From Candidatus Latescibacterota bacterium (GTDB taxonomy: Bacteria; Latescibacterota; UBA2968; UBA8231), in the NCBI GenBank assembly GCA_965215195.1, contig CBDCDC010000002.1:4128001-4192000 (forward strand): 64,000 bases of DNA, in the 5' to 3' direction. The stretch's first letter is position 1. The number at the start of each line of letters is the position of its first letter. The notes under the pieces are model-generated. The model saw nothing but the letters and a program-made list of their open reading frames with translations, did no database searches and had not been told where the DNA came from. The translations under genes were made by a program, and so were the position numbers. Positions 51,419 to 57,834 of this stretch are shown here, piece by piece.

Positions 51419-53026
51419 ATGACCGACCCAATCCTGCTCACCGACGAGCAGATGCGCGAGTTTATCGTCAATGGCTATCTGGTTTTTGAGCCGACCGTGC
51501 CCGCAGGGACGCACGAAGCGTGCTATGAGCGGCTCAACCAGATCATCGACTCGGAGCCTAATCCGGGCAATAACATCCTGCCGCGCGTACCCGCCATGCG
51601 CCACGTGCTCAACTCGCCCGAGGTGCGCGGCGCACTCATCAGCGTCTTAGGCCCGAACTTTTTGGAGCATCCGCACCGCTACTGCCATCCCCTCAAGCCA
51701 GTGGAGGAACCCGTGCCCGCGGCCGAGGCCGAAGAGAGGCTGCGCCGCAACTGCCATCAGGACGGGTACACGCCCATGGGCCATCCGCGCCAGCACTATC
51801 TGCGCTATGCGCGAATCATGTACTATCCGCAGGATTCGCCGGTCGAGTTGGGGCCGACGCACGTGATCCCGGGCACCCAGTTCAATCGCGGACTGACCGA
51901 CGAGGATCGGGCGCGCGCCTTGCCATTGGCCGGCCGGGCCGGCACGGTGTCCCTGACGCACTTTGACGTGGGCCACGCGGCCGGCGTCAGCCTGCTACCG
52001 GTGCATCGGCACATGATCAAGTTCATCTACATGCGAGCCGCCGAGCCGACGGCCCCGACCTGGGACTGCAAAAGCATGCACTGGCAGAAGCCCCACTGGA
52101 GTGAGGTTCCCTACGATCTGGAACTGGCTTGGGCGCACACTTGGGACTGGCTATGCGGCAAGCGGGATCGCTACGATAGCTGCCCACAGGCCACTGGAGA
52201 TGTGGCGGCACTCATCGCCCAGCTCGATCTAGACGTGGATTTAGCGCAGCGGCTTGCGGCGGCACAGCGATTGGCCGGATTCGGCGTTGATGCGGCTGCA
52301 GCCGTGCCAGTGCTCGTGGAGTGCTTGGGCACCGATCACCAAGCCATGCGCACGGCAGCGACCTACGCGCTAGGCGCGATCGGCGAGCCCGCGGTCGCGT
52401 CGCTGGCCAAAGCCTTGCGCACCGCAGGTCGCGAGGCCGACCAACACGAGGCCCCGCCCGTTTGGAGCGAGGGAGCGACTAACATGGAGGACGCGGCCCA
52501 AGCACTGGCGGCCGTTGGCGAGCCGGCGGTTGAAGCGCTCTGTGCGCTGTTGGACGACGAAAGCGAGTGGACTCAAGTCAACGCCGCCTTTGCCCTCGGC
52601 GAAATGGATTCGCACGCGGAGGCAGCAGTCCCGGCGCTGACGCGGACCCTTGAAGAGGGCTCGCATCGCTTGGTGCGCACGGCGCTCGTCGCGCTGGGCA
52701 ATATCGCGCAAGGCGTACCAGTAGAAGCCTTGGGGCGCATGCTCTCGGCCGATCACCCAAATTGGCAGGAGGAAGCTGGCCGCCGCTGGGTGCCCCGCGA
52801 CCAAGTGCGGACCAACGCCGCAATAGCCTGCGCCCAGCTCGGCCCGGCCGCCGCTCCGTTAGAAGCCCAGCTTTTCAGGGCACTCGACGACCCCTGCGGC
52901 CACGTAGGCGCATTCGCGCTCAGTGCCCTGCAGCAGATTGGCTCGCCCACAGCCACGCAGGCCGCGATGGATTATCTCTATTCGCAGCGCTGGGACGCCG
53001 CTATTGACGGCGAGCGGCAGTTTTGA
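51419..53026 (+). CDS. Phytanoyl-CoA dioxygenase-like domain fused to HEAT repeats
   Basis: LTDEQ..F..NGYL, HQD, YYPQD..GPT..PGT; HEAT_2 repeats (AAFALG, ALGAIGEPAV). Confidence 0.85.
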   Translation: MTDPILLTDEQMREFIVNGYLVFEPTVPAGTHEACYERLNQIIDSEPNPGNNILPRVPAMRHVLNSPEVRGALISVLGPNFLEHPHRYCHPLKPVEEPVPAAEAEERLRRNCHQDGYTPMGHPRQHYLRYARIMYYPQDSPVELGPTHVIPGTQFNRGLTDEDRARALPLAGRAGTVSLTHFDVGHAAGVSLLPVHRHMIKFIYMRAAEPTAPTWDCKSMHWQKPHWSEVPYDLELAWAHTWDWLCGKRDRYDSCPQATGDVAALIAQLDLDVDLAQRLAAAQRLAGFGVDAAAAVPVLVECLGTDHQAMRTAATYALGAIGEPAVASLAKALRTAGREADQHEAPPVWSEGATNMEDAAQALAAVGEPAVEALCALLDDESEWTQVNAAFALGEMDSHAEAAVPALTRTLEEGSHRLVRTALVALGNIAQGVPVEALGRMLSADHPNWQEEAGRRWVPRDQVRTNAAIACAQLGPAAAPLEAQLFRALDDPCGHVGAFALSALQQIGSPTATQAAMDYLYSQRWDAAIDGERQF

Positions 53027-53029
53027 GGG

Positions 53030-53122
53030 GATGAGTTTGAGTGCATCGGCAATGGTCTTCTTCCCTAGAGAACGGTCGATAAAGAAAACAAGTGGATCAG
53101 GCTGCTCGGGTGTATAACTCAC
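53030..53122 (-). pseudogene. VapC45-like PIN toxin, first ~30 codons only
   Basis: VSYTPEQPDPLVFFIDRSLGKKTIADAL, then runs into the convergent gene. Confidence 0.7.
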
Positions 53123-53810
53123 AGCGGATCGCTTCTTCGATATCGAGCGTCGGGCGATCATAGTCGTCCGCTAATGCACTGATTGCCTCCCCGGCCTTGT
53201 AGCGTTCGGCAATAATAGCCGTAGGAATCCCAGTGCCTGCGAGCACCGGGCGACCAAAAGATATGCGAGGATCAATGACAATTGCCTTGGGTTCTTCCAT
53301 GAGTTGTTGGCTTGGGCGCTTGCGCGTGAAGGGGTATAGCCTCCGGGCATAACCAGCCGAATCCCTATCAATGCGCCGCAGATGCGCCTGCAACAGGTTC
53401 CTAAGTACCAGTTGTCCAGCTTGAGAGACATTTATGAGTTGACCGTATTCTTCGACAAAGAGGTCCAAGCCGTCGGTTTCGATCTTGTGGTATGCGAGAG
53501 GGTGATCGGACGTTAGTTCTTCTTTGATGAAATCGATAGCAATCCTAGCCTTGTGCAGCGATATGCAATGGTCGCGGCGAATGGCATCGAGCATGTGGAT
53601 TTCGACCAGATTGATAAAGGATAGAAGGTTCTGGCTATCGTCTGGTAGGTCGATCACAGGCTGGAAGAACTGGTCTCCTCCGCTAGTAGGATATTTGCGG
53701 CCTCGCACCCAAGAGCGAAGCGTAGTCACGGGAATGCGCAGGTAGTGGGCAGCCTCGGGAAAGCTGTAACAGGGCATTGCGCGTATGTCATCTGTTGCGA
53801 TAGATCTCAT
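53097..53810 (-). CDS. DUF433/VapB45-like antitoxin
   Basis: YSFPEAAHYL..TLRSW HTH, LSFINLVE, IDPRISFGRP...IEEAIR. Confidence 0.85.
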   Translation of the reverse strand: MRSIATDDIRAMPCYSFPEAAHYLRIPVTTLRSWVRGRKYPTSGGDQFFQPVIDLPDDSQNLLSFINLVEIHMLDAIRRDHCISLHKARIAIDFIKEELTSDHPLAYHKIETDGLDLFVEEYGQLINVSQAGQLVLRNLLQAHLRRIDRDSAGYARRLYPFTRKRPSQQLMEEPKAIVIDPRISFGRPVLAGTGIPTAIIAERYKAGEAISALADDYDRPTLDIEEAIRCELYTRAA

Positions 53811-53864
53811 GCCATAAGGTCCTTTAGCCGAGAGACGAATGCGCTGATAGACCATTAGTTTGCA

Positions 53865-54770
53865 CTAATGGTCTCTAGGCATTACGCCCTCTTTCATAGG
53901 TTTAAGTGTTCCATCACGCAAGTACATAGCGTATCTCTGGAATTGCCACTCTAGGGAGAAAATTTGTTCTGCCCAATCTCTCAGAGGCTGACTGCACGCA
54001 TTATTGCGAGCAAGAGCCTGTAGGGTTGGAATTTGTTCACCAATTTGTTCAGCTATTTCGTTATAAAAACTGCTTCTTGCTTGTTCTGGAAAGTGACTAC
54101 GCTCACGAATACGAAACTGAACTGGATATTTTTGCTTGATTATATTGACCCAATACAGCAGTTTTCGGTTGTTTACGACGTATGGATCCACCCCTATGAA
54201 GCTAACATGTTGGGTTGACAACACACCGTTGGGCACTGTACAGCTAATCTCTGGATCTTGAGTCTTTGTCTTTTGTCTGCCAAATTCCTCAGCCAACTGA
54301 TCTCGGAACTTGATATAAGTGCTTTTAGGAGTGCCAGAGTTGCTTGAATACTTGAAGAGACGATTAATATCTTCAAGTGTCTTGAGTGCTTCACGTTCGC
54401 GGTTGAAGCCTTTCGCTCCTGCTGACCAGAGACATACTGCAACATCGGAGGCTTCCAATAGAGCCGAAGGACGTAGTTGAAATAGTATGGGCCCGTAGGG
54501 ATTTGGAACACTTTTTGATCCCTTCGCAAAAGAGCTACCAAAGTCTGACAAGTTTACGAAAACTTTATCCCACATATTGTTTTCACGGTCAATAGCGTCG
54601 GTCTGAAATGGCGTAAATTCTAATTGTCTACTTTCAAGCAAAGCACGTGAGGGAATTCCTCCAAGACTAATATACGACTCAAAGTCAATTAATTGACAGG
54701 CATGATAGAGGAATACTTGACGCTCTTCAAATAAATCCACCAAATCTTGAATGTCGTTACCGGTTATCAT
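53865..54770 (-). CDS. Hypothetical protein, DarT-like ADP-ribosyltransferase candidate
   Basis: LYHACQLIDFESYISLGGIPSR resembles the DarT N-terminal strand (LYHxT..N..SI..GL.SR); distal QDPEISC resembles the QAExxV catalytic strand. Confidence 0.5.
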   Translation of the reverse strand: MITGNDIQDLVDLFEERQVFLYHACQLIDFESYISLGGIPSRALLESRQLEFTPFQTDAIDRENNMWDKVFVNLSDFGSSFAKGSKSVPNPYGPILFQLRPSALLEASDVAVCLWSAGAKGFNREREALKTLEDINRLFKYSSNSGTPKSTYIKFRDQLAEEFGRQKTKTQDPEISCTVPNGVLSTQHVSFIGVDPYVVNNRKLLYWVNIIKQKYPVQFRIRERSHFPEQARSSFYNEIAEQIGEQIPTLQALARNNACSQPLRDWAEQIFSLEWQFQRYAMYLRDGTLKPMKEGVMPRDH

Positions 54771-54790
54771 GAGATTAGCCTTTCCAACAG

Positions 54791-55729
54791 TTAAAACAGA
54801 TTAAGTTGTTTGCTTTCAGGGCCTTTTGTGGGAACTTTATCGCCTATGTCCTGTTCAAGACGAGTTGCTTCCTCTTTTAGAAGCTCAACAAATATAGGTT
54901 GCGCTTTTGCCCAAATTGCCTCGGCTTCGTCAAATGAAAGTCCTACTTTACCTAGTCTCCACTCTACCTCTTTATCCCACCATCGGGAGGGTTTGTGTTT
55001 TTTTGTGACATGACCGCTTTCACAATAGAAACTAATCCAATTCAGTTGCCTCCAAGAAAATCGAGTCTCCTTTGCAACTTTGTGAAGAGCGGCTTTTCCT
55101 TGAGGGGTGTGTTTATCTAATGCAACCCAAAACGGAAAATTCATTTCACTATTAGTATTAGGATCTGTGTACAGCTCGGGTAATCCATCCCTAATAGCTA
55201 AATATGCTGTTGCTTGTATAAAGGCCCTATCCCAAGGCCATCCGCCCTTTCGATAAACTTTTTCAGCCTGTTCGACGAGTCTAGTTTCAGTTTCGCGCGT
55301 ATTTGAACATTGAGAAATTGCCCATTCCCAATATGTGTTAGCATCTGTAATCGCCTCACAAACCCGTTGAATGGTATCATCTTCTTCACAGCCTGTCAGT
55401 ACTGACCTATCGCCTTCTGAAAGTGCATATGCCAGAGATCCGAGTCCAGCTGCGTCTTTGAACTTTACAGAGTTGGCAAGTTCGCTGAGAATCTCTACCA
55501 TTGCCACCTGTTCCTCGTGCTTCTTAGGTGGCCTCCATTTAACCATGAGAGGCCAGCATTCTTCAGCGATTATCACACCGATTCGTTGCCTGAGCCACCT
55601 GATGTCCCCTATTTCATAAAGGTGATTGACAACCTTAGTAACAAGGTCAGAGTTACCACGGCGCACTGCTTTTTGAAGTAGAGAACGACAACGTTGATCC
55701 GTATTCGAATTAACCTTGCGCATGTACAT
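54791..55729 (-). CDS. Hypothetical helical protein with an MgsA/RarA-C-like start, a DKHT motif and a terminal QLNLF
   Basis: RSLLQKAVRRG, IIAEE, ALDKHTPQGK; AAGGA RBS before 55729. Confidence 0.6.
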   Translation of the reverse strand: MYMRKVNSNTDQRCRSLLQKAVRRGNSDLVTKVVNHLYEIGDIRWLRQRIGVIIAEECWPLMVKWRPPKKHEEQVAMVEILSELANSVKFKDAAGLGSLAYALSEGDRSVLTGCEEDDTIQRVCEAITDANTYWEWAISQCSNTRETETRLVEQAEKVYRKGGWPWDRAFIQATAYLAIRDGLPELYTDPNTNSEMNFPFWVALDKHTPQGKAALHKVAKETRFSWRQLNWISFYCESGHVTKKHKPSRWWDKEVEWRLGKVGLSFDEAEAIWAKAQPIFVELLKEEATRLEQDIGDKVPTKGPESKQLNLF

Positions 55730-55928
55730 CAGTTGGTCCTTCAATTGAAGTTTGATTAAGCTTGACTCTCTGTTTTTCCCAACGTTGTGCGTCTGGTCGT
55801 GATCGGTAAACGGCCAAGGAGGTGTTCTGTGTACCAACGCGTCATTGAAGATAACAACGAAACCAGCCCCGTTACAATTTGTCGAACGCAATCCATTCCA
55901 TCCTCTCTGTGGACAAAACATGGGTAAT

Positions 55929-55980
55929 GCCCATTAGATAGCGCAAGCATCGCTCAGGGCGTCTTGCGTACGCCTTGGAG
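55929..55980 (-). repeat. Second copy of the tetR 3' end and downstream flank (57232-57282)
   Basis: Both encode LQGVRKTP* (GTA CGC vs GTG CGT) plus about 24 nt of flank. Confidence 0.9.
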
Positions 55981-56013
55981 TATTGGGGGTTGCAAACCCG
56001 TCTAGCCCTACTC

Positions 56014-57117
56014 TTAACGATTGGGGACTAAGGGGCTGCCTTCGGCTTTCTTGCGCTCTATTTCCGCATGGGTTTTGTATAGCTGGAGGTAGCGGTGTGC
56101 AGTCGGCGGATGCGTACCTCTAAAGTTGTTTGACGCAACGGGATTGCGTTCCGCCATGCGTCGCCAGAAGTCGGCCGCCCCCTCGGTATCAAAGCCAGCC
56201 CGGGCCATCAGATAGAGTCCAACGTAGTCGGCTTCTTGCTCAAAGGCTTGGCTAAAGGCGATTGCACCAGCCTCCATTGTGCTTTGTGTGATGGTGCCAA
56301 AGGTCGGTACGCCCGTTACCGCCCATTCAACAGCCGCTCCCATGATTCCGCCGAGTAGAGCATTCGTTTTCTTTTTATCGACATGTCCCTCGGTGCAGTG
56401 AGCCAACTCGTGGGCGATGACCAAGGCCAATTCACTATCTGTCGCAAAATCAAGCATTCCTGCTGTTAGGACAATATTTTCACCGTCTGTATAGGCATTA
56501 ACATCTTGTCCCTCCGAATGATATACCAAGTGAGAGCAAATCGGCTCCGCCTTTATAGGGATTTCGATAATCGTATCTTTGTTTGCTGCAACCTTGCGCT
56601 GGACCGTAAAGATCGTCGGCTCCTCTGACGCATGACGTTTAAGCAGCTTGTGAAGATTGCTTTGGTACTCAAGGTCGTATTCGTTCCAGTGGGGCCATAT
56701 TGTCTTAATCGGCTCTCCCCCGATCCTCGTAATCTGGTCTCCGGGCTGAAGACCAGACTGTGCGGCTGGGGAGCCGGCTACAAGTTCCACGACTATCGGT
56801 TGCTCCCGCAACTTCTCTATGCCATAATAGCGCAACCTCAAGAGACGATCCCAAGGCTTCATTTTCTGCGTACTCGCCGAGTCTAAGTAGCTGAATCCGA
56901 ATTGGAAGCGAGTCTTTTTGCCACATAGCGCGGCGTTGGCTCGCATGATAGACGGCGCAAGGCGCGCTATTCGCTCTTGCCGCTGCATGGACAATCGGAA
57001 GATTCTTTCCAATTGATGGAGCATTTCCTCGGTGACTTCAGAAGAAGAAAGCTCAGGGATTTTGTACCTAGGAGCACATGAGCCAAGAATAAGAAGAATC
57101 ACGAATAGGGTAGGCAT
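56014..57117 (-). CDS. M48 metallopeptidase with PDZ domain, probable lipoprotein
   Basis: LGSC lipobox, GSPAAQSGLQPGD PDZ, NAY, AHELAH, EQEAD, THP. Confidence 0.88.
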   Translation of the reverse strand: MPTLFVILLILGSCAPRYKIPELSSSEVTEEMLHQLERIFRLSMQRQERIARLAPSIMRANAALCGKKTRFQFGFSYLDSASTQKMKPWDRLLRLRYYGIEKLREQPIVVELVAGSPAAQSGLQPGDQITRIGGEPIKTIWPHWNEYDLEYQSNLHKLLKRHASEEPTIFTVQRKVAANKDTIIEIPIKAEPICSHLVYHSEGQDVNAYTDGENIVLTAGMLDFATDSELALVIAHELAHCTEGHVDKKKTNALLGGIMGAAVEWAVTGVPTFGTITQSTMEAGAIAFSQAFEQEADYVGLYLMARAGFDTEGAADFWRRMAERNPVASNNFRGTHPPTAHRYLQLYKTHAEIERKKAEGSPLVPNR

Positions 57118-57255
57118 ATAGAGGCACCTTTCATCCTTCTTGGTTGTGCTGCAAGTCGAGTGGGAGGCTGGTCCTCTGCGCCGCCGTGAGCCAGCGCATT
57201 TTGAGCTGCAGCGCAGTTCAAGATAGTTTTGGCCCATAGATAGCGCAAGCGTCGC

Positions 57256-57834
57256 TCAGGGCGTCTTACGCACGCCTTGGAGGAAGATGCGCATGATGGT
57301 ATCGACCATGGCCTCTACGCTCAGGCCCTTTGCGTGGATCATCACCGAGCGCACCATGCCGCGGAGGATAGCAGCTTCGACCTGCGGGTGCTCAACCGAG
57401 AAGACGCCCTGTTCAATGCCATTTTGCAGGACCGTCTCGATCGCGGCGCGCTGGATGCGCCGTTCCTCGTGCCAGCGCCTGCGGTTTTCGCCCTTGCCGC
57501 TCCCGCTCTTGCCGTCCTCGTGCGACATCAAGCGGAAGAAGAAGCGGTTCTGGTTGAAGAAGGAGACAATGGCGTGGACCATCCGGCGGAGTTCCTCTTC
57601 CGGGTCCTGCTGGCGATTGGCCTTGCGCTGAAGCTGCTCGTTGAGCCGCCGGATGCCTTCAAAGACCACCGCAAAGTACAGCTCTTCTTTGTCGGCAAAG
57701 TACGTGTAGATCGTCCCCTTGCCGACGCCGGCTTGGTGGGCAATATCGTCCATGAGCACTTCGTCGAAGCGCTTGGCCGAAAAGAGGCGGGCCGCCTCTT
57801 CAAGGATGAGCTTTCTGCGGTTAGTTCTGGCCAT
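57256..57834 (-). CDS. TetR/AcrR-family regulator
   Basis: ILEEAARLF...DIAHQAGVGKGTIYTYFADKEEL. Confidence 0.92.
   Translation of the reverse strand: MARTNRRKLILEEAARLFSAKRFDEVLMDDIAHQAGVGKGTIYTYFADKEELYFAVVFEGIRRLNEQLQRKANRQQDPEEELRRMVHAIVSFFNQNRFFFRLMSHEDGKSGSGKGENRRRWHEERRIQRAAIETVLQNGIEQGVFSVEHPQVEAAILRGMVRSVMIHAKGLSVEAMVDTIMRIFLQGVRKTP

Follow-up and report, generated by a model that had tools for sequence, protein, structure and literature searches.

The window analyzed here is a stretch of 64,000 nucleotides (nt) from a Candidatus Latescibacterota bacterium (GenBank assembly GCA_965215195.1, contig CBDCDC010000002.1, positions 4,128,001 to 4,192,000 of the forward strand), and the subject of this study is a pair of adjacent genes, referred to as A and B, at 54-56 kb of this window. 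Both genes are on the minus strand, with B upstream of A and 20 nt between them, and together with a leader they form a mobile cassette. Protein A is predicted with high confidence to have the ADP-ribosyltransferase (ART) fold, being closest to the solved DarT structures, and protein B is predicted to be an all-helical protein with a disordered tail that ends in a β-clamp-binding-type peptide. Coordinates are those of the window unless a genome is named, and the loci (L), genomes (G) and homologous proteins (P) of the comparison sets are identified by number. The features of the cassette are as follows.

53838..55920 (approximate ends), minus strand: two-gene mobile cassette (A, B and a leader of ~200 nt), delimited by the empty sites in congeners
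54791..55723, minus strand: gene B, 310-residue all-α partner (start set by homologues; predicted model)
53865..54770, minus strand: gene A, 301-residue DarT-fold protein (predicted model and Foldseek)
54702..54704, minus strand: codon of His23 of A, in LYHAC of the first core strand (E21-25) (conservation, hhalign register)
54249..54251, minus strand: codon of Glu174 of A, in DPEISC, the first residue of strand E174-178 and candidate catalytic acid (conservation, model)
54794..54808, minus strand: last five codons of B, QLNLF, a β-clamp-binding-type pentapeptide (motif match)
55724..55920, minus strand: cassette leader, the 5' untranslated and promoter region of B (~90% conserved with L001)

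A and B form a mobile and coupled gene pair

The GC content is 0.42-0.46 at 54-56 kb of the window, as compared with ~0.62-0.66 in the flanks. A comparison of the segment 50600-59200 across the 31 genomes of the genus shows flanks that are preserved in all of them, with the stretch carrying A and B matched in two genomes, the window's own and G140; in the 168 genomes of the phylum, A and B are both found in the same two genomes, and each gene is single-copy in the genome of the window. An empty site is present in at least eight congeners (G119, G127, G129, G133, G134, G135, G145 and G146), in which the 3' end of a TetR gene is 4-30 nt from a gene with DUF433 and helix-turn-helix (HTH) domains. 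Five of these empty junctions were read base by base, which places the inserted block at ~53838 to ~55920, corresponding to an inserted cassette of 2.1 kb with the TetR gene 3' end on one side and the DUF433/HTH gene on the other. The cassette is ~90% identical between the window, L001 and G140; for the window and L001, the ratio of nonsynonymous to synonymous substitution rates (dN/dS) has values of 0.45 (A) and 0.25 (B). This part of the window is an accessory, mobile cassette, in agreement with the original prediction, made from the letters of the DNA alone, of two AT-rich, co-oriented genes 20 bp apart in an accessory block. The motifs quoted in that prediction are all present in the translations (LYHACQ, GGIPSR and QDPEISC of A; SLLQKAVRRG, IIAEE, ALDKHTPQGK and the terminal QLNLF of B).

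The two genes also occur together elsewhere. In species-representative genomes there are 34 A loci, and B is directly upstream and co-oriented in 25 of these; two of the other nine are A fragments at contig ends. In the metagenome data, for which the best 80 of 140 qualifying stretches with B are considered, an A-family gene flanks B in 60 loci, no such neighbor is seen despite sufficient room in 11, and the stretch is too short in nine. The 60 neighbors are of two kinds: in 26 loci a full-length A is downstream of B, and in 34 loci (within L066-L114) a shorter protein of ~230 residues, referred to as A', is upstream of B (L089 was assigned by eye in this count). A-B pairs occur in two gene orders and across many phyla. 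The pairwise distances of A and B are correlated over 39 loci (r = 0.84), the maximum with permuted labels being 0.21. The pair is adjacent, co-oriented, co-inherited, patchy in its distribution and mobile, and this fits the layout of type II toxin-antitoxin systems.

Where both genes are away from contig ends, 41 loci have the two genes intact and five (L013, L022, L028, L041 and L052) have a split or truncated A beside an intact B; the reverse is not seen, the five-versus-none count being small and taken from metagenome assemblies. The broken copies of A beside an intact B point indirectly to A as the harmful part of the pair.

The A' family has 321 word-search matches, all annotated as 'hypothetical', and no significant Pfam match is obtained with six A' proteins. 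The homology of A and A' extends over 202 columns, with an hhalign probability of 98.6%, and the invariant residues H, D..D, W, F and YG are common to both. The A' proteins have, in addition, invariants of their own, namely H75, R77 and three cysteines forming a C-x3-C-x-C cluster.

Predicted structures and conserved residues of A and B

The A family comprises 260 word-search matches, and the joint profile of A and A' retrieves 784 representative clusters (E <= 1e-3) in 1.84 billion proteins. No Pfam family matches A at E <= 1, nor any of 48 A homologues; no significant match to A is obtained in NCBIfam and PHROGs, and in PADLOC-DB 2.0 a family match at E <= 1 is lacking for A, for B and for both of the downstream open reading frames (ORFs). 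The AlphaFold model of A, calculated from an alignment of 48 sequences, has a predicted local distance difference test score (pLDDT) of 94.5 and a predicted template modeling (TM) score (pTM) of 0.91, and in it a mixed α/β core precedes a helical bundle formed by residues 230-294. When this model is compared with the PDB by Foldseek, the first match is DarT1 of Escherichia coli C7 (PDB entry: 8baq; E 1.2e-5, probability 1.00, TM-score 0.46 on the query and 0.62 on the target), and the second is Mycobacterium tuberculosis DarT (7yk3_C; E 1.6e-4), with the Thermosipho and Thermus DarT structures (7omu, 7omy, 7omv, 7omw and 7omx; probability 0.99-1.00) further down. The top 10 rows include eight DarT chains (E 1.2e-5 to 2.3e-2, probability 0.99-1.00) and two of SopF, an ART effector, at ranks 3 and 6; other ARTs, among them cholera toxin and CteC, come later with nonsignificant E-values. 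Just two rows have E <= 0.001, and the root mean square deviation (rmsd) values are 5-8 Å, which marks A as a divergent relative. An independent lead comes from the ESM Atlas, in which an A homologue with 49% identity superimposes on a cluster named DUF4433 (TM-scores 0.60/0.77) and on a PF14487 cluster (0.52/0.72). The ART fold proposed from the sequence is therefore borne out by a confident model, for which DarT structures come first.

The profile comparisons point in the same direction. With hhalign, a 30-sequence DarT profile drawn from the genomes of the phylum is matched with P-values of 0.029 (A), 0.018 (A') and 0.0042 (joint profile), the unrelated controls having values of 0.71 and 0.21; with a 17-sequence DarT profile the P-value of A is 0.22. 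In all three runs with the larger profile, LYHAC..DF.SY..GGI.SR is aligned with iYHi.H.dNl.sI..G.L.S, which is motif I of DarT, and His23 of A is aligned with its YH. Counted over 266 A-family proteins, His23 is conserved in 261 (the other five have gaps) and it is invariant in the joint alignment of A and A', and position 174 is acidic in all 266 (Glu in 259, Asp in 7). Other conserved residues are R42 (254/266), D58 (263/266), D61 (264/266), Y92 (247/266, Phe in 18) and D195 (258/266, Glu in 6). In the model, His23 is inside the first core strand (residues 21-25) and Glu174 opens the strand 174-178. In the DarT enzymes, the catalytic-null position is E152 of DarT1 and E160 of DarT2, and a proton relay with R52 and D54 has been described (PMC11543638); Glu174 of A is a likely candidate for the equivalent of these two glutamates. 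Taken together, A can be placed, putatively, in the DarT branch of the ART fold as a divergent member, and it may be an NAD+-dependent effector or toxin.

Variation at the ends of the A-family proteins is also seen. The C terminus is SSB-tail-like and acidic (..[DE]x[ILV]P[FW], for example ...DNNDIPF) in 7 of the 266, and examples of SSB-tail-like or acidic tails are P0069, P0087, P0089, P0095, P0109, P0320 and P0367, and those of L043 and L049. At least nine longer forms have an acidic tail of the type 'ARS.EDGWFY.D', and one homologue (P0345) is fused to two HTH_40 domains. The acidic end peptides may be docking or self-inhibiting peptides.

A search of the whole genome with PF14487 does not find A; it finds two other DarT genes (G000:C2:1387348-1387974 and G000:C2:404880-405443), the first of which is followed by a macrodomain gene. 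With two canonical DarT genes and A in the same genome, the organism would carry three DarT-fold systems.

Protein B has 1,166 word-search matches, and neither B nor 49 of its homologues has a Pfam domain; NCBIfam and PHROGs also give no match for B. An ORF can be read back to 55921, which would give a B of 376 residues, but this long form is not conserved. The B homologues all start at MRK..NP.TH, and in L001 the frame opens just 3 nt ahead of its ATG, so the start of B is set at 55723. The model of B (pLDDT 90.7, pTM 0.88) is all-α, with 15 helices. In 161 sequences, 36 positions keep the residue of the window in at least 97%, and 11 of these are tryptophans; the near-invariant positions include the clusters QK..RR, EE.W, K.KDA..LG, W.WD, D.HT..GK and S.W...E..WR. 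A passive tether would require less than this. For the B homologue P0195, the nearest Atlas clusters are mostly labeled as Nucleocytoviricota (61-94% of the members having a record), and this may point to giant viruses having B-like proteins.

Foldseek of B against the PDB gives nothing at E <= 0.001, and the best rows have TM-scores of ~0.1; by far the highest probability is that of E. coli MgsA (3pvs_A; 0.77, 136 columns, 18% identity). The top three PDB profile matches, over residues ~4-55 of B, are also ATPases of the RarA/MgsA type (E 0.1-0.9), and hhalign of B against the MgsA C-terminal region gives two weak local matches, the second of which is collinear and aligns residues 152-180 of B with the '...LGSPEGELALAQAAVYLA' helix pair (P 0.022). 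A score of 0.96 is obtained for the Atlas cluster nearest to a B homologue, and PF12002 is present in 11% of the proteins of this cluster. The resemblance is to the PF12002 region and the SAxxKSxRGSD helix, with which the N-terminal helices of B (QKAVRRG...GD..WL..R) can be aligned; B differs in that it lacks the AAA+ module and in that its two matched segments are separated by ~95 additional residues, and the resemblance reaches no significance threshold. RarA is a replisome-associated protein that is recruited via the SSB tail (PMC6101539). The MgsA_C resemblance that was noticed from the sequence thus persists as four weak but convergent signals, none of which is significant, and the PF12002 model does not detect B; B may be described as partly MgsA_C-like, but it does not belong to that family.

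As had been proposed, B is unrelated to DarG: no Pfam domain is present and the P-value of hhalign against a DarG profile is 0.25. There is also no match to NADAR/YbiA in Pfam, and no macrodomain or NADAR structure is in the Foldseek list. The system can be compared with the two DarTG systems, in which DarT2 modifies thymidine of single-stranded DNA (ssDNA) and has the DarG macrodomain as its antitoxin, and DarT1 modifies guanosine and has a NADAR antitoxin. As in DarTG2, there is a two-gene operon that is mobile and patchy, the predicted fold of A is closest to DarT (M. tuberculosis 7yk3 and Thermus 7omv-7omy being among the top Foldseek matches), and A has an N-terminal xYHx strand motif together with an acidic residue that opens a later core strand. 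In contrast with DarTG2, A is not matched by PF14487 and has ~90 extra C-terminal residues that form the helical bundle, B neither contains a macrodomain nor resembles DarG, and the gene of B precedes that of A, whereas darT precedes darG. As for DarTG1, the best single structural match of A is the DarT1 structure 8baq, and the NADAR antidote is mainly helical and not of the macrodomain type (PMC11543638), as B is helical; however, B has no NADAR/YbiA match and does have a clamp-motif tail, of which no report for NADAR was met in the literature consulted.

The motif of B is in an accessible, disordered tail: the last long helix of the model (266-296) is followed by residues with pLDDT below 50 (model residues 301-312). 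The terminal peptide QLNLF is presumably also the motif of UmuC. The host genome has dnaN, and the β-clamp consensus, QL(S/D)LF, is located at C termini (PMC9690074). In the last 60 residues of 120 B homologues, QLxLF is found in 62 (in 29 of these within the last 12 residues), a relaxed form is found in 22, the tail ends in LPGF in 16, and there is no tail motif in 20; some homologues have two copies of the motif. QLxLF is expected in 0.2 proteins from shuffled tails, and it does not occur in 30,606 residues of B bodies. Conservation of the motif, as originally predicted, is confirmed for the subfamily of the window, in which 39 of 51 B tails of the A-type loci have QLxLF, the relaxed pattern or a terminal LPGF; it does not extend to the A' branch (0/34). 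For the subfamily of the window, it is conceivable that QLNLF docks B on the DnaN sliding clamp, as its position and match with the consensus suggest.

Surroundings of the cassette and of its relatives

The leader (55724..55920) has no conserved ORF, and none of at least 90 residues is present in the L001 leader. Rfam gives no match over 52700-57400, and a strong promoter consensus was not found in the leader. The stretch 55756-55928, which was originally taken for the 3' remnant of a possible third gene, was rejected as such and is assigned to this 5' leader of the cassette. Adjoining the leader, a direct repeat of 53 nt (positions 55928-55980 and 57230-57282, 89% identical) has the sequence of the TetR gene 3' end and brackets an M48-PDZ peptidase gene (56014..57237, Pfam). 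This peptidase gene is absent at this site from L001 and G140; it is therefore not considered to be a member of the module, and it points to a second, independent insertion or duplication beside the cassette.

On the other side of the cassette is the resident gene:

53097..53855: resident DUF433 + HTH_66 gene (Pfam)

It is resident in congeners without the cassette and was rejected as a third operon member. Its first codons, as drawn from 53855, are in cassette-derived sequence, which makes a Met near 53811 the probable true start. A 100-residue ORF (52859-53161) without a Pfam match overlaps this gene, and its start resembles the DUF5615 partner of DUF433 antitoxins. The synteny with L001 breaks at 53037, where L001 has an extra 2.75 kb. 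No defense island is seen within the window itself.

In other genomes, A without B is found behind McrB and McrC (L023, and by ORF layout L026), ahead of a TIR-domain protein (L032) and behind two ORFs of unknown function in planctomycete loci. A reverse transcriptase gene follows A in six loci, in five of which B is present. A dGTPase-like HD protein is encoded within ~3 kb in 13 of 114 loci (L016-L018, L021, L030, L031, L042, L044, L048, L099, L101, L111 and L112), the mutual identity of these proteins being 28-100%. It could be that the dGTPase and reverse transcriptase neighbors are part of a larger multigene system, or that they share defense islands with the pair. A' alone is present in two viral contigs: in L187, which is myovirus-like, it is located between tape-measure-like and tail tube/sheath-like genes (by their translations), and in L188 it directly follows a dGTPase-like gene. 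In ~9 Poribacteria loci (records L002-L013, L022 and L035), the B-A pair is located between the ATP-synthase γ and β genes, inside an essential operon. Neither A nor B is found in the plasmid record collection, neither A' nor B in the phage record collection, and no B in a pattern scan of IMG/VR.

Possible role of the pair

We judge it somewhat more probable than an even chance that the pair is an autonomous two-gene module that moves horizontally and is of the toxin-antitoxin or anti-phage type, in which A is a DarT-fold effector and B is a clamp-docked helical antidote or regulator. By analogy with DarT1 and DarT2, A would take NAD+ to ADP-ribosylate bases in ssDNA, and this modification would block cellular replication or that of a phage entering the cell. 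B would be made first from the shared operon and would keep A harmless. The disordered QLNLF peptide would dock B on the DnaN sliding clamp, and the antidote would thus sit at exposed ssDNA, where lesions would stall replication forks; there, B could counter A by binding it or by removing the lesions. The enzymatic activity and toxicity of A, DNA as its substrate, the antidote role of B and its binding to the clamp are all suggested by these comparisons, and the proposal agrees with the predicted ART fold, with the co-occurrence of the genes in other genomes and with the conservation of the tail motif in the subfamily of the window. None of the three outcomes that would have spoken against the original prediction (no ART fold, no co-occurrence elsewhere, no conservation of the tail motif) was observed. 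A DarT-like ART with a clamp-tethered partner, as originally predicted, is in this way partly supported for the window's own subfamily, and its generality is not supported in view of the A' architecture.

Several observations weigh against this proposal. As regards A, no sequence model places it in DarT and PF14487 misses it, the PDB profile searches with three alignments (A1, A4 and A3) found no ART, the similarity to 8baq is moderate in terms of TM-scores (rmsd 5.6 Å), and the hhalign match of A with DarT is not significant alone. As regards A', the position aligned with Glu174 is Met in 113 of 120 proteins, which means that half of the superfamily may function in another way or not as a transferase, and a lone A', as in the two viral contigs, would be unusual if this is a toxin dependent on an antidote. 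As regards B, the link with MgsA_C is below threshold everywhere, there is no recognizable hydrolase fold in the Foldseek list, and none of the 34 B tails of the A' loci has QLxLF or the relaxed pattern (Q[LMFI]x[LFIM][FLIW]). A looser motif, Qxx[LMF][LFVI] within the last 12 residues, is present in just 7 of 26 distinct B proteins of this type, 0.41 being expected. The disruption of A rather than B rests on the small count described above, and the stable site of the pair in the atp operon of Poribacteria may reflect a domesticated role. As A' lacks the Glu, is mostly without the motif in its partner and is sometimes alone in viruses, caution is needed in generalizing from the window to the superfamily, and there is room for another chemistry.

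It is also possible, although we think it rather unlikely, that B is a guard or sensor rather than an eraser, which resides on the clamp and holds A inactive until a phage hijacks or blocks the clamp, or floods the cell with clamp binders, so that B is displaced or degraded and A is freed to ADP-ribosylate the phage DNA during its replication, in an abortive or direct defense. The location of the clamp motif on a flexible tail, its persistence in spite of its variability, the defense genes beside A and A' (McrBC, TIR, reverse transcriptase and dGTPase-like) and the rarity and mobility of the cassette are all in agreement with such a function, but PADLOC matches neither A nor B, the pair is not found in the annotated phage and plasmid collections, the window has no defense island, and the 36 near-invariant positions of B exceed the needs of a simple tether. 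We have distinctly low confidence in a more specific form of the antidote role, in which B would be a new, clamp-recruited and all-helical ADP-ribose eraser, the fourth such superfamily after the macrodomains, ARH and NADAR.

Two further explanations are, in our estimate, improbable. In the first, A and B would place reversible marks on ssDNA, at forks or origins, and in this way tune replication, and would not primarily serve addiction or defense. In favor of this are the stable placement of the pair inside the atp operon in Poribacteria and the purifying selection on both A and B; a role of this kind has been reported for DarTG in mycobacteria, and growth control by DarT/DarG has been described (PMC12170906). 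The explanation does not fit with the patchy spread (2/168 and 2/31 genomes), the precise insertion of the cassette, its low GC content and the A pseudogenes. In the second, to which we attach a comparably small weight, A would be an ART-fold enzyme with RNA, a protein or a small molecule as its target instead of DNA, or it would simply be an NADase, and B would be just a stoichiometric inhibitor whose tail is unrelated to the clamp. A protein-targeting ART, SopF, is indeed among the top fold matches, A' has no Glu, and the LPGF-type and Qxx tails stray from the clamp consensus; on the other side, the DarT structures come first and account for eight of the ten best Foldseek rows, two DNA-binding domains of the HTH_40 type are fused to one A homologue, and several homologues have SSB-tail-like acidic ends.

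A reversal of the roles, with B as a toxin that blocks the clamp at its hydrophobic cleft in the way of SocB (PMC9690074) or RipA (PMC12795458), which are clamp-targeting toxins of toxin-antitoxin systems, and with A regulating or neutralizing it, is very improbable: the clamp motif is carried by B, but it is common among harmless proteins, the toxin-family fold is that of A, the broken gene is A, and in 11 of the 80 loci (best 80 of 140) B occurs without A although a neighbor would have room. In our preferred reading, with A as the effector and B as its antidote, the system resembles SocAB and RipAB in that a toxin-antitoxin module uses a clamp-binding motif; the difference is that in those systems the toxin binds and blocks the clamp, whereas in the present pair it is the non-ART partner that carries the motif, and a putative enzyme is the candidate toxin.

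DarT systems are a model for bacterial enzymatic DNA ADP-ribosylation, and they act in phage defense and in growth control; DarT2 has also been used as a genome-editing tool (PMC13368585). A new branch with the DarT fold, missed by every curated model, widens this family and possibly its base and sequence specificities, and B is a new partner family with no fold relative in the PDB and with a conserved, putative clamp-docking peptide. In the literature searched, no DarT-like enzyme with a clamp-motif or MgsA_C-like partner was found, the supplementary lists of DarT-like families, which lay outside this search, being a source that could bear on the novelty. If the proposal is correct, the pair would be a toxin-antitoxin or defense module that is linked directly to the replisome from the side of the antidote, which was not found described. 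If B is in addition a clamp-recruited eraser, the pair would constitute a third class of DarT-type nucleic-acid ADP-ribosylation system, and the repair of ADP-ribosylated DNA would become coupled to the clamp at replication forks.

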